A stretch of 64,000 bases of DNA, taken from the IMG/VR virus record IMGVR_UViG_3300020576_007607, positions 5,448-69,447 of that record. The stretch is one strand, 5' to 3'. The position numbers and the translations under genes are program-made. Shown one piece after another: positions 5,389 through 10,622 of this stretch. The DNA is from a virus. Taxonomy: Duplodnaviria > Caudoviricetes. The notes beneath the pieces are model-generated. The model worked only from the letters and a program-made list of their open reading frames with translations. It was not told where the DNA came from and searched no databases. Position 1 is the first letter of the stretch. Every line of letters begins with the position of its first letter.

Positions 5389-5512
5389 ATAAAAGATGAT
5401 TCATAAGTTCCTTAATTCGATAGTCAAAAACCATCGTCTGAAAATCCTGATATTGTTTCAGATTGTCCTGACTGAAATTTTCCCTGATGTATTCTATCGA
5501 TTGTTCGTCCAT
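5378..5512 (-). CDS. 44-aa hypothetical protein
   Basis: ATG 5 nt after TATCTTTG (5518-5525); translated by hand. Confidence 0.5.
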   Translation of the reverse strand: MDEQSIEYIRENFSQDNLKQYQDFQTMVFDYRIKELMNHLLYEI

Positions 5513-6373: not shown

Positions 6374-6805
6374 CTATTGTTTTACAAGTTCCAATACCGA
6401 CAGGAATCGGTGGAATATCTTATCACGTCCTTCCTCATAGGTCAGGAAACCTGCCCAATCTATCTCCGAAGCCTGAAGCTGTTCCTTTGGGACAATTTCG
6501 GTTTCCAACCCTATCTCGGACAATTTGGATATCCAGACAACATAGACGTAAACCGTCTTGAACATAATCCCCCCTTTGTTGACATAATCGACCCGAATCG
6601 GATTTTTCGGGTTCGATATCTGAGAAGGATTTATTTCAATCCCAACCTCCTCACGACATTCTCGTATTGCCGCTTCCAAAAAACTCTCACCCAAATCAAC
6701 ACCACCTTTGGGAAGGGAAAATGAGTTGATCCAACGGTTGTTAGTCGGATGACAAAGAAGAAGTTTGTTCCGATATATTATAGCTATTCCTGCGCTTATC
6801 TTCAT
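6374..6805 (-). CDS. NUDIX hydrolase
   Basis: PKGGVDLGESFLEAAIRECREEVG; start at MKISAG, 1 nt after the upstream stop. Confidence 0.88.
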   Translation of the reverse strand: MKISAGIAIIYRNKLLLCHPTNNRWINSFSLPKGGVDLGESFLEAAIRECREEVGIEINPSQISNPKNPIRVDYVNKGGIMFKTVYVYVVWISKLSEIGLETEIVPKEQLQASEIDWAGFLTYEEGRDKIFHRFLSVLELVKQ

Positions 6806-6806
6806 A

Positions 6807-7271
6807 TTAGTCCAAATGTCTTGCGTCTTTATGACTTCCCTTTGGATGTTTGTTGTGAGTCCAAAGTCTGCAGAAAGGAGTTGTGAAATAATCGTTGTAT
6901 ATAAGGGTATCATCTATGTGAAGATCGATACTATGTTTGGCGCAGTACTCACCTTTTGTTTTGTCCCATTCATCATCTGATATCTGTGGAAACCCATATT
7001 TTGGATGAATTCCATTGGTTGGTGTTCCTTTTTCTCGGTGATAATCAGATATCGAGAAAAAATGAGTCCATCTTATCTTGTAATCCTCCAAAAGTTTGAC
7101 ATCTTTCTCCGACGTTCCACCAGTTATTATATGAACCTCTCCACCAGAGTCTATTATCGCCTTAGTGAAAAAAGAGAAGAATTCAGGCATTGAATCTATA
7201 ACACCGTGCAGATCTAGACCAACCTTGTAAGGTCTACCTAAACTCTCAGAGATTTTAGAAAACTTATACAT
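6807..7271 (-). CDS. HAD-superfamily phosphatase-like protein
   Basis: VGLDLHGVID motif I variant, IITGG motif II, HIDD motif IV. Confidence 0.7.
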   Translation of the reverse strand: MYKFSKISESLGRPYKVGLDLHGVIDSMPEFFSFFTKAIIDSGGEVHIITGGTSEKDVKLLEDYKIRWTHFFSISDYHREKGTPTNGIHPKYGFPQISDDEWDKTKGEYCAKHSIDLHIDDTLIYNDYFTTPFCRLWTHNKHPKGSHKDARHLD

Positions 7272-7292: not shown

Positions 7293-7727
7293 TTATTTTA
7301 ACGGACAAAGGAATTCGAAATCTCCGAATGACAATTCCTTACCAGTTAAGTAACTGAAAAACTGAGAAAGCTCCTTTATCGAACTCTCATCCATACAGTA
7401 CCTTTCTGTCCCCCAAAATTTCTTTGGATCCTCAATTATCGAAATCATACCGTCCATTATGCTGAACGAGAATACCATGAAATCCCCACAGGTCATATCA
7501 ATATCTAGTTTTATGGAACCACCGACCGTAATCTTATAGATGTCAATCTCAAACGTATCAGGGAAACCATAGGTTGGATCTTCATAGGTTATCTGATATT
7601 GCATGTCAGAAGGTTCCATAATATTTCCTAACCTAAACGTATAGTTTTTCCCATCATGTAGTTTTATTTCCTTGGGAAGATGAGATTTCCAATCCCCTGA
7701 CCATTCGAAAAATTTTGATATTCTCAT
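7293..7727 (-). CDS. hypothetical protein with N-terminal tag (MRISKFFE)
   Basis: TAATATATA at 7733-7741. Confidence 0.7.
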   Translation of the reverse strand: MRISKFFEWSGDWKSHLPKEIKLHDGKNYTFRLGNIMEPSDMQYQITYEDPTYGFPDTFEIDIYKITVGGSIKLDIDMTCGDFMVFSFSIMDGMISIIEDPKKFWGTERYCMDESSIKELSQFFSYLTGKELSFGDFEFLCPLK

Positions 7728-7738
7728 TACATTATATA

Positions 7739-9022
7739 TTATTTCAACAATATCCTATTTGGCATCCCAGGCATGTATATCCCAATCAGATCCACCAACT
7801 CCTTCTTAACGACAGGAGTCAAGCTTTTCGATCTTTCCCTGTTCAGCAAGGTCATCCACTCACTGACCACCTTATTGAACTTGAACGACTCGGTATACCC
7901 GAATATCCTTTTCCTGAACTGGTCGACATCAATCGTGTCGTCACCTTCCCTGGACATCCATTCGGAAAAGCGGGAGACGAACCGCTCGACACCCGAGATG
8001 TTCCGATCCGACCAAACACCACCGTCAAAGAAATGAGAAATAAACATCAAATAGAATCTCATGATGTCAGAATCGTAGTCGTCTGGATTGACAACATTTC
8101 CTCTTGACTTTGACATCTTATTCCCATCACCCGCCAATATCATTCCGTTATGGATCAATTTTTTGAATGGTTCTTCACATGGAACTACACCAATGTCATA
8201 CAAAAACATATGTATGAAACGACTGTATATCAAATGATTAGTGGCCAATTCCACCCCGCAACAGTAGGTATCAACCTGTCTGTACTTCTCCATTGAACAG
8301 ATCTCATTTCGGTTTTCTGGATCACAATACCTGATGAAATAAAAAGATGAGTCCACAAAGGTGTCCAATGTATCAGTTTCACCTTCGATCGGTATCGGAG
8401 CCCCGAATTTCCTCTGCCTACCAACCGACCAATCTTTCAAATTTGTCAACCAGTTTCTCTGTATTTTCTTAGTAGATTCTGGATAGTCCAACCAATCCAA
8501 GTTTTTAATCAACCTCTCACGGTAATCTGTTATCCTAAAATACCACTGGTCCATCTTTCTGATCTCAATCCTTTCCGAACACCTCTCACATCTGTCATCC
8601 TTGCACTGCTCGTTGGCCAAGGCAGTCCCGCACGACGGGCACCAATTGACATCGCCGAATTTCTTGTAGGCCAACCCGTGTTCCTTCAATTTGGAGAATA
8701 TCCACTGGGTCCACCTCACATATTCGGGATCATGTGTGGAAAACATCATTTCATACTCGGTTCCCATCGATGACAACTGTCTTTTGAAATTTCGGATGTT
8801 GTCCCAGGCGACATCACTCGGATCCTTACCAACTTTTTGAGCATATAATTCGGTCGGCAATCCATGAGTATCGAATCCCATCGGTTGGAATACCTCATTG
8901 CCCTGATACCTCAAGTATCTGGCGTACGAATCCATAATCCCGTAGGAATAAGCGTGTCCCATGTGAAGAGCTGATGAACTAGGAAACGGAAAGGCTGAAA
9001 GTATATAAATTTGTTTTTTCAT
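7739..9022 (-). CDS. leuS: minimal leucyl-tRNA synthetase (no CP1 editing, leucine-specific or C-terminal domain)
   Basis: AFPFPSSSALHMGH (HIGH), PMGFDTHGLPTE, CPSC/CERC Zn knuckle, QWYFRIT, DTLDTFVDSS, KMSKSRGN; QRNW joined almost directly to DWSVGRQR. Confidence 0.92.
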   Translation of the reverse strand: MKKQIYILSAFPFPSSSALHMGHAYSYGIMDSYARYLRYQGNEVFQPMGFDTHGLPTELYAQKVGKDPSDVAWDNIRNFKRQLSSMGTEYEMMFSTHDPEYVRWTQWIFSKLKEHGLAYKKFGDVNWCPSCGTALANEQCKDDRCERCSERIEIRKMDQWYFRITDYRERLIKNLDWLDYPESTKKIQRNWLTNLKDWSVGRQRKFGAPIPIEGETDTLDTFVDSSFYFIRYCDPENRNEICSMEKYRQVDTYCCGVELATNHLIYSRFIHMFLYDIGVVPCEEPFKKLIHNGMILAGDGNKMSKSRGNVVNPDDYDSDIMRFYLMFISHFFDGGVWSDRNISGVERFVSRFSEWMSREGDDTIDVDQFRKRIFGYTESFKFNKVVSEWMTLLNRERSKSLTPVVKKELVDLIGIYMPGMPNRILLK

Positions 9023-9105
9023 ATCTTTATTTTTTTTAAATGTGAGCAAATTTCTTCTCTAAATCCATAATAACAAGCTGCTCCCTATGTGTAGGGATAT
9101 GGTTT

Positions 9106-9216
9106 TTAATTAAAAAAAGAACCATCGATACAACTAAGTCCTTTTTGAATACCCATTAGTTGATGAGATCCGGAACCGGAAGGATAAGGGAAGGCGACCA
9201 ATACATATTTTTTCAT
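9106..9216 (-). pseudogene. 36-aa ORF whose first 18 aa resemble a LeuRS N-terminus
   Basis: MKKYVLVAFPYPSGSGSH matches the LeuRS FPYPSGxGLH motif, then diverges. Confidence 0.65.
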
Positions 9217-9239
9217 AATTCTATTTTTTATTTTTGGCA

Positions 9240-9270
9240 CAAAAAAACCGGACCTTTTGAGTCCGGTTTT
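9240..9270 (-). terminator. attenuator terminator hairpin
   Basis: AAAACCGGAC-TCAAAAG-GTCCGGTTTTTTT on the minus strand. Confidence 0.85.
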
Positions 9271-9288
9271 CAGATGAAGCAAAATCAT

Positions 9289-9356: not shown

Positions 9357-9624
9357 TGGTTCCACCGAGAATCGAACTCAGATCTGGAGATTAGCTTACC
9401 ACTATGATTTTCATCACCTTTCGTTTGTGGTCTGGACTTTACCTTTACCATATTGTTTCCAACTTAGGTAATCGCCATCAAGTCTCTACACCTTCTATTT
9501 TAATAGCTTGGCTCGGTATTGGCATTTTAAAGCGTTCACCGAATTTGACGATATCCAACAAATCAATTTCTTGATAAGTCGCTCCATTAAAAGTCACCCG
9601 TTTTATCCATTAAACTATGGAACC
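9357..9624 (-). tRNA. tRNA-Leu(UAA), intron-containing; exons 9624-9591 and 9411-9357
   Basis: Acceptor GGTTCCA/TGGAACC + A73, D-arm GTTT/AAAC, anticodon loop CTT^AAAA, 21-nt variable region, T-arm CTGAG-TTCGATT-CTCGG; CCA not encoded. Confidence 0.88.
9412..9590 (-). ncRNA. group I intron (IC3-like), 179 nt, no ORF
   Basis: P/Q/R/S cores GTCAAATTCGGTGAA, AATACCGAGCCAAGC, GAAGGTGTAGAGACTTGATGGCG, AAGGTAAAGTCCAG; P1 CTT/GAG; GAAA loops in P2, P8 and P9; terminal G. Confidence 0.9.
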
Positions 9625-10151: not shown

Positions 10152-10622
10152 TTAGATTATTCTGATGTTGGTGATTTCAATTTCTAGTTTTCCGGCGGGG
10201 ATATCAACCTCGATATGATCTCCGACTCTATGGTTCATAAGTGATTTTCCAATCGGGCTGTTTGGTGATATTTTTCCTTCCTTCAGGTTTATTTCATGCT
10301 CGGGAACAATCCTATATTCGGTTTCCTTTCCAGTTTTCTTATTTTTGAACTTGACCCATGTCAGAAGTTGGACAGTACCATCATCTATAACCCCTTCGAT
10401 TATCTGACAGTTGGAAAGTATCTTCCCAATCTTACTCATCTTGTCGTTTAAATCATCCAAAGCCTGTTTGGCCACATCATACTCTGCATTCTCACTCAAG
10501 TCACCCTTATCCCTAGCATCACTAAGATTTTGAAGACATTCCCTAAGATCAACACTCTTCATGTGTTGAAGTTCAGATTCCATTTTCAAATATCCCTCAC
10601 GGGTCATTGGTATTTTTTCCAT
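10152..10622 (-). CDS. greA: transcription elongation factor GreA
   Basis: MTREGY, ARDKGDLSENAEY, ISPNSPIGKSL. Confidence 0.93.
   Translation of the reverse strand: MEKIPMTREGYLKMESELQHMKSVDLRECLQNLSDARDKGDLSENAEYDVAKQALDDLNDKMSKIGKILSNCQIIEGVIDDGTVQLLTWVKFKNKKTGKETEYRIVPEHEINLKEGKISPNSPIGKSLMNHRVGDHIEVDIPAGKLEIEITNIRII

Follow-up and report, generated by a model that had tools for sequence, protein, structure and literature searches.

The DNA analysed here, referred to below as the window, is a stretch of 64,000 nucleotides from a virus of the Caudoviricetes (IMG/VR record IMGVR_UViG_3300020576_007607, positions 5,448 to 69,447 of that record). At 7739-9022, on the minus strand, it encodes a 427-residue protein (ATG at 9022, stop codon at 7739-7741), which we read as a functional, editing-free minimal leucyl-tRNA synthetase (LeuRS) of a huge phage, tied to leucine decoding; judging from sequence comparisons and a structural model, we put the probability of this reading at about 55%. 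The most likely reading of the window copy is that it is a derived form of this mini-LeuRS with a retuned active site. The annotation of such proteins as LeuRS in databases was known already, and the family is apparently undescribed in the literature that we searched. What is new here is a clade marked by the motif CGVELA, designated type B, to which the window copy belongs, the bias of the window gene towards TTG, confined to its leucine codons, and the clustering of tRNA-Leu genes by members of the family. An upstream TTG at 9049 could extend the protein by nine residues; the homologues nevertheless begin at the ATG.

A Pfam search of the 427-residue protein returned class I synthetase domains, and the top-ranking NCBIfam profile was TIGR00396 (leuS_bact; 378 bits, E = 1e-112), far above that of valyl-tRNA synthetase (ValRS; 174 bits), with the methionyl and isoleucyl enzymes (MetRS and IleRS) at 174 bits or less. 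The equivalog cut-off of TIGR00396, 548 bits, was not reached because half of the model is unmatched. Among solved sequences the best match was the LeuRS of Mycoplasma mobile (PDB 3ZIU, E = 1.7e-82). An AlphaFold2 model, for which 130 sequences were the input, had a mean pLDDT of 93.9 and a pTM of 0.91, and in a VIA comparison with the LeuRS structures of Thermus thermophilus, Escherichia coli, Neisseria gonorrhoeae and M. mobile, 424-427 of its 427 residues superposed (Z about 38, root-mean-square deviation 1.8-2.0 Å), the aligned ranges being residues 29-793 in T. thermophilus, 31-775 in E. coli and 34-554 in M. mobile. The catalytic body is thus the same, over about 424 residues, as that of canonical LeuRS (860 residues in E. 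coli, 878 in T. thermophilus). Foldseek matched the model to LeuRS at E = 1e-40, with M. mobile 3ZIU again at the top (TMq 0.93). An earlier note on this DNA, made from its letters, had proposed a naturally minimised phage LeuRS and had pointed to the M. mobile enzyme; the proposal is borne out, and the M. mobile enzyme is the closest described one by both sequence and structure.

The deletions were mapped by alignment to E. coli LeuRS (sequence from NC_000913); all coordinates within the gene refer to the minus strand. Residues 1-30 of the E. coli enzyme have no counterpart in the mini-LeuRS. The CP1 editing domain (E. coli 225-416) is gone, leaving two residues at the junction QRNWL-TN-LKDWSVGRQR (8411-8461), and the ZN2-like insert (437-485) is absent between GAPIPIEG and ETDTLDTF (junction GAPIPIEG-ETDTLD, 8363-8404). 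An AGDG linker, followed by KMSKS (8105-8146), stands where the E. coli enzyme has its leucine-specific domain (LSD; 574-617), several short stretches of the helical domain are deleted, and the chain stops at about E. coli residue 775 (C-terminus, 7742-7780), so that residues 776-860, including the C-terminal domain that binds the tRNA elbow, are absent. The class I signatures are intact, HMGH being residues 20-23 (H20-H23, 8954-8965) and KMSKS residues 302-306, and both are invariant across the mini family. The four-cysteine ZN1 knuckle (C128xxC131...C145xxC148, reading CPSC...CERC; 8579-8641) is also retained, together with the TALANEQ motif; this segment keeps E138 (E. coli E169) and R147 (R178), and W177 is replaced by Glu in the window copy and by Glu or Asp throughout the mini family, the roles of these three residues being taken from PMC13454842. 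In E. coli LeuRS an adenylate analogue is held by L41, H52, D80, E532 and H533 (PMC13454842), for which the equivalents F11, H23, D51 (E. coli D80) and E258 are present and Leu259 stands in the place of H533. In the model the protein is the main body of LeuRS, composed of the catalytic domain, the ZN1 module and the greater part of the anticodon-binding domain, and all appended modules are stripped. The synthetic machinery of LeuRS is complete in it, with the Rossmann fold, both class I signatures, the D80 loop, E532, H537, Y499, Y527 and ZN1 including E169 and R178. The earlier note had read HMGH, KMSKS and the knuckle as intact, and all are seen in the translation; its account of the excised CP1, the collapsed segment between GAPIP and ETDTLDTF, the absent LSD and the end of the chain after a shortened helical bundle proved exact in the E. 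coli alignment, and it was right that GGxEHA reads CGVELA (residues 255-260).

Engineered constructs, namely the LeuRS urzyme, an excerpt of the catalytic core of about 120-130 residues, and CP1-deletion variants, show that catalysis survives the loss of appended domains. The phage enzyme, in contrast to the urzyme, is natural, has three times its size and still has ZN1, the CP core, the SC fold and the greater part of the helical domain. The suggestion in the earlier note that the reduction approaches the urzyme was therefore overstated: a urzyme has about 130 residues, and the phage protein has 427, with an entire catalytic body and much of the anticodon-binding domain. The described natural 'minimal' LeuRS, that of M. 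mobile (637 residues), is likewise of the bacterial type and without CP1, and a G-x-D-G tetrapeptide stands in for the LSD (GKDG in M. mobile, PMC3643597; AGDG in the phage). The phage protein is, however, 210 residues shorter, without the C-terminal domain, the GxPIP-ETDT insert and about 30 N-terminal residues; it replaces CP1 by two residues (TN) rather than by a nonapeptide and, unlike the M. mobile enzyme, keeps the four-cysteine ZN1 knuckle. The two do not share descent from a common short form, the phage minis being a clade of their own apart from the cellular short forms. Loss of the LSD, listed in the earlier note among the reductions, is nothing special, as the LeuRS of M. mobile and that of B. 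subtilis are also without it (PMC3643597). Charging is retained with a G-x-D-G tetrapeptide in place of the LSD and a short linker in place of CP1 (PMC3643597; PMC3561953). In comparison with canonical bacterial LeuRS, then, the phage protein is without CP1, the ZN2-like insert, the LSD and the C-terminal domain and has Glu or Asp for W177, and type B adds F82H, N88L, H533L, M40A and M536N.

A search that covered 5.8 billion proteins gave at least 120 clusters of mini-LeuRS, 58-75% identical and about 410-440 residues long, on phage contigs of up to 780 kb; the JGI annotation of several members reads leucyl-tRNA synthetase and nothing further, and GenBank phage records contain one mini-LeuRS only, of type A. 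Each of five phage genomes of 476-608 kb, at 97-100% completeness, has exactly one mini-LeuRS. The window belongs to a 69-kb IMG/VR contig that CheckV places at 13% completeness, giving a genome estimate of about 0.5 Mb, and its DNA matches records of uncultured phages of 635-735 kb; the source is therefore a huge phage. Literature searches found no paper describing a half-size phage LeuRS, and Al-Shayeb 2020 (PMC7162821) mentions phage tRNA synthetases only in general terms.

The mini-LeuRS is under strong purifying selection and is not decaying. A comparison of the window gene with the type B gene at locus L095 gives a proportion of synonymous differences (pS) of 0.87, which is saturated, and a proportion of nonsynonymous differences (pN) of 0.17, and the less diverged type A pairs give ratios of nonsynonymous to synonymous divergence (dN/dS) of 0.08-0.12; these are far from the value near 1 among relatives that the earlier note took, together with a lack of amino-acid activation, as the mark of a decaying gene. 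In a tree that also includes full- and mid-length LeuRS, the minis group as a single clade (support 100), the sister of which is a 530-residue form with all the other deletions but with a stump of about 110 residues at the CP1 site, and this intermediate suggests that the reduction proceeded stepwise. Cellular LeuRS forms of 570-640 residues place among the full-length enzymes.

The link with leucine decoding comes in part from how the gene spells its own leucine. TTG accounts for 23 of its 28 Leu codons, compared with 19% in the other ORFs of the window of at least 200 residues, and in a chi-square comparison of codon usage leucine gave P = 3e-13 and every other amino acid P > 0.07. A foreign origin as the source of the bias was rejected, as only leucine deviates. 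The protein is not depleted in leucine (6.6%, compared with 7.2% in the other ORFs, P = 0.64). Across the family, about 40 of 55 distinct loci spell leucine with essentially one codon, and the median share of the top Leu codon is 0.76 in the gene and 0.15 in its flanks. This codon is mostly TTG, even at 27-35% GC, and three lineages use CTG. In the type B gene of L095, 22 of 25 Leu codons are TTG despite the saturated synonymous divergence from the window gene; the trait thus persists over deep divergence, with a switch to CTG in some lineages.

The isoacceptor tRNA-Leu(CAA) reads UUG alone, and synthesis of the enzyme could run largely on this single tRNA through its TTG codons. Under the supply-and-demand model of isoacceptor charging, reportedly that of Elf (2003) and Dittmar (2005), a TTG message, using a low-demand codon with a dedicated isoacceptor, would remain translatable while the heavily used Leu tRNAs are uncharged. 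Alternatively, the bias may serve timing by a phage tRNA-Leu(CAA). If true, the spelling of a synthetase's own amino acid with a single codon would be a strategy that ties its output to one isoacceptor, and one that is unreported as far as we found.

The second link is with tRNA genes. Of the 335 tRNA genes in the 8-10-kb flanks of the mini-LeuRS genes, 87 encode tRNA-Leu (anticodons UAA 29, CAA 25, UAG 19, AAG 10, GAG 3 and CAG 1), and these are often clustered directly upstream of the mini-LeuRS gene. Together, the codon bias and the tRNA-Leu linkage argue that the selected role concerns Leu-tRNA and that type B is still in that role; because the bias is confined to leucine and the linked genes are those of tRNA-Leu, we favour leucine decoding over an unrelated job such as the synthesis of diadenosine tetraphosphate (Ap4A).

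Details of these clusters vary. At L058, L062, L085, L160 and other loci, the mini-LeuRS gene is preceded, at a distance of 0.1-2 kb, by three to seven tRNA-Leu genes, and some of the clustered genes are just 74-77 nucleotides long, without a long variable arm. The sole tRNA-Leu(CAG) in the flanks is at L062, where the LeuRS gene (on the same contig as L012) has CTG at 19 of 20 Leu codons.

Types A and B were separated by tabulating motifs and from the family alignment of 120 clusters, with E. coli numbering, 101 clusters being of type A and 19, including the window gene, of type B. In both types D80, E532, H537, Y499, Y527, E169, R178, W223 and F493 are kept. The types differ at position 40 (Met in 96 of 101 type A clusters, Ala in 19 of 19 of type B), 82 (Phe in A, His in B), 86 (Ala in A, Thr in B), 88 (Asn in A, Leu, with a few Ile or Met, in B), 528 (Val, with a few Ile, in A, Cys in B), 529 (Gly in A, Cys or Thr in B), 533 (His in 101 of 101, Leu in 19 of 19), 535 (Cys in A, Thr in B) and 536 (Met in A, Asn in B), and the type B-specific residues are invariant or nearly so among the 19 clusters. 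The change to CGVELA that the earlier note pointed out is no private lesion of the window copy but the signature of a conserved sub-lineage (19 of 120 clusters). In the window gene the changes fall into three segments: the strand and loop of the leucine pocket with the HIGH signature (AFPFPSS...HMGH, 8954-8995), which has M40A and, in the window copy, also Y43F; the D80 loop GFDTHGLPTELYA (8840-8878), in which D51, the equivalent of D80, is kept next to the type B changes F82H, A86T and N88L; and the remodelled 'priming loop' VDTYCCGVELATNHLIY (8225-8275), with I528C, G529C, H533L, I535T and M536N around the retained E532 and H537. In E. coli LeuRS, residues 531-536 are a mobile 'priming loop' in which M536 flips, and H533 hydrogen-bonds a leucyl-adenylate analogue (PMC13454842). 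About 120 diverse cellular LeuRS have His at H533 in 120 of 120, Phe at F82 in 122 of 123 and Asn or Gln at position 88 in 122 of 123.

Type B is a single clade (support 99) nested within type A. The closest syntenic relative of the window, L006, has a type A gene in the same place, with genes for a 207-residue protein, GreA, an HAD-like protein, a 154-residue protein, a NUDIX protein and an AAA protein as common neighbours; this suggests that type B is a retuned allele of the orthologous gene and not a paralogue gained in addition. Because the TTG-only spelling is kept at saturated synonymous divergence, the type B active site reads as retuned but still leucine-linked, with F82, N88, H533, M40 and M536 replaced and then frozen. 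A scan of IMG/VR and metagenomes added two type B loci and no others, L089 (17-kb contig) and L095 (4-kb contig). The L089 copy (7995-9276, plus strand) is interrupted by a frameshift and no longer shows the TTG bias, TTG being 3 of its 29 Leu codons; either the copy is decaying, or it comes from a lineage that lacks the bias and the frameshift is a sequencing error.

As we envisage it, the mini-LeuRS would activate leucine and transfer it to tRNA-Leu, of the phage and/or the host, binding the tRNA mainly through the acceptor end and contacts with the main body and without proofreading. It would in this way boost or secure the supply of Leu-tRNA for a phage whose tRNA-Leu genes often adjoin that of the enzyme. 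Several observations weigh against this view. Deletion of the C-terminal domain abolishes aminoacylation by E. coli and T. thermophilus LeuRS (PMC3561953), and here the domain is absent, with no conserved neighbour to supply it, the commonest protein family near the gene occurring in 13 of 88 loci. Mutation of W177 to Ala lowers the kcat of activation 800-fold in E. coli LeuRS (PMC13454842), and this residue is lost family-wide; the adenylate-contacting H533 is Leu in type B; and there is no tRNA-Leu gene in the window or in the rest of the 69-kb contig.

The same losses would suit a leucine-activating paralogue that does not charge tRNA and would form or hold Leu-AMP, or bind tRNA-Leu, for sensing, regulation or the synthesis of dinucleotide polyphosphates, an alternative that we think unlikely. 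It would fit the absence of a C-terminal domain that E. coli and T. thermophilus LeuRS need for charging and the loss of W177 in the family and of H533 in type B, and it has a precedent in the LeuRS-I of Sulfolobaceae, an enzyme that binds tRNA-Leu and makes leucyl-adenylate but performs no aminoacylation (PMC9437257). A NUDIX hydrolase gene (6374-6913, minus strand), two genes downstream and also present in the syntenic L006, is a weak hint in favour of the dinucleotide-polyphosphate idea, as the association comes from one syntenic relative only. However, KMSKS, E169, R178 and E532, which serve transfer or hold the CCA end, are all invariant, and the tRNA-Leu clusters and the TTG-only spelling suit a role in translation at least equally well. 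The archaeal precedent also differs in kind: LeuRS-I and the haloarchaeal LeuRS2, which are LeuRS-derived, have altered editing or C-terminal parts and a role maybe beyond bulk charging (PMC9437257), are full-size cellular duplicates, whereas the phage protein is bacterial-type and half-size, and is the sole LeuRS gene per genome in the complete phage relatives.

For type B there is the further question of whether M40A, F82H, N88L, H533L and M536N changed the amino-acid substrate or conferred resistance to a mimic of leucyl-adenylate, to which we give a rather low probability. The substituted positions are invariant or nearly so in other LeuRS and the substitutions are fixed in all 19 type B clusters; moreover, M40 is among the positions at which E. 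coli LeuRS has been altered to redirect it to non-canonical amino acids (PMC6610526), the adenylate analogue is contacted by H533, and the self-immunity LeuRS AgnB2, with changes near the active site, is a precedent for resistance (PMC5059758). Against this, Y499, Y527 and H537, which form the other walls of the leucine pocket, have not changed in type B, nor have D80 and E532, and the Leu-specific TTG bias is retained at saturated synonymous divergence. The type A gene at the syntenic L006 suggests orthologous replacement rather than a new job, and the nearest type A neighbours carry part of the changes already (A40 with T86, or I529), which indicates a gradual shift. Retuning within a leucine-linked role thus remains our preferred account of type B.

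The most far-reaching version of our proposal combines three elements, and we hold it to be improbable as a whole: that the mini-LeuRS charges naturally by the acceptor end only, with no reading of the elbow or variable arm and no proofreading, as a present-day counterpart of the enzymes proposed for an 'operational code'; that type B has been re-specified through F82H, N88L, H533L and M40A to another substrate or to resistance to an adenylate mimic; and that the enzyme is itself made largely on a single tRNA-Leu isoacceptor via TTG.

A decaying or truncated fragment, or an assembly artefact, might have been suspected from the half-normal length, the score of 378 rather than 548 bits, the 5' LeuRS remnant upstream (see below) and the frameshifted L089 copy without TTG bias, but more than 120 clusters with common length and domain boundaries, strong purifying selection, a confident, compact model and a maintained codon bias refute it for the window gene and leave it scarcely any probability.

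On the current view, a bacterial LeuRS depends on the C-terminal domain for charging and on CP1 to prevent mistranslation. If our reading is true, a large conserved phage family does without the C-terminal domain, CP1, the LSD and the ZN2-like insert, and the missing C-terminal domain would contradict what is known of charging by bacterial LeuRS. The protein would then be the smallest natural LeuRS and would reveal which tRNA contacts suffice, with consequences for how we see the evolution of synthetases and for compact orthogonal pairs in genetic-code expansion. Type B would in addition be a natural active-site experiment at positions that are invariant or nearly so in the other LeuRS sampled.

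The region upstream of the gene contains, in order and on the same (minus) strand, promoter-like sites, an intron-split tRNA gene, a terminator-like hairpin and a 36-codon ORF, followed by the mini-LeuRS gene. The tRNA gene (9357-9624) is that of a tRNA-Arg(UCU) in which a group I intron of about 196 nucleotides (approximately 9395-9590; Rfam RF00028, 57.7 bits) separates U34 from C35; ARAGORN misses the unspliced tRNA and calls tRNA-Arg(tct) after splicing in silico. An intron-bearing tRNA-Leu at this place was considered and rejected, since splicing yields a tRNA-Arg(UCU) whose variable loop is short. In the 735-kb phage LR756501.1 (L180), a related intron of 80% identity occupies the same anticodon-loop position of a tRNA-Leu(UAA) gene, and a further one interrupts a capsid gene of Pelagibacter phage HTVC120P (L181), so that the intron seems, from these matches, to move between targets.

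Between the tRNA gene and the short ORF lies a hairpin resembling an intrinsic terminator, with a 12-bp stem followed by U7 (9240-9272, minus strand; folding energy -19.9 kcal/mol, z -3.9). The 36-codon ORF (9106-9216, minus strand) is a 5' remnant of a mini-LeuRS gene; it opens with MKKYVLVAFPYPSGSG, and its reading frame breaks off at the first His of HxGH. By tblastn it matches the N-termini of mini-LeuRS at 35 loci, and the DNA alignment extends over the A-rich leader. A Leu leader peptide was rejected, as the ORF has only three Leu codons, all different, and matches LeuRS N-termini. The remnant suggests that recombination either replaced the resident gene or duplicated part of it.

Among the other neighbours, a gene for a GreA-type transcript-cleavage factor (10152-10622, minus strand) lies upstream and is syntenic with L006. 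A split enzyme of the type of the Aquifex alpha-beta LeuRS was rejected: the tightly coupled downstream ORF of 144 residues (7293-7727) has no relevant Pfam match, was found by tblastn in 0 of 52 relatives, and its family lies downstream in 6 of 88 loci. At L065 (3348-4190, plus strand) and six other loci, an ORF of about 284 residues with a class II synthetase-like N-terminus lies near the mini-LeuRS gene, and it may be another synthetase relative consisting only of a catalytic core. Finally, complete relatives of 508-519 kb encode ValRS-like proteins of 450 and 509 residues, an IleRS-like protein of 655 residues and a MetRS of 484 residues (L175:391-1740, plus strand; L177:396-1922, plus strand; L178:210-2174, minus strand; and L176:499-1950, plus strand, respectively), the ValRS-like and IleRS-like forms being without the CP1 or editing part of their profiles. 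The shedding of editing and appended domains appears to be general for the class Ia synthetases of these phages, with the half-size ValRS and the short IleRS pointing to charging without editing as something that the phages generally tolerate, or make use of, during infection.

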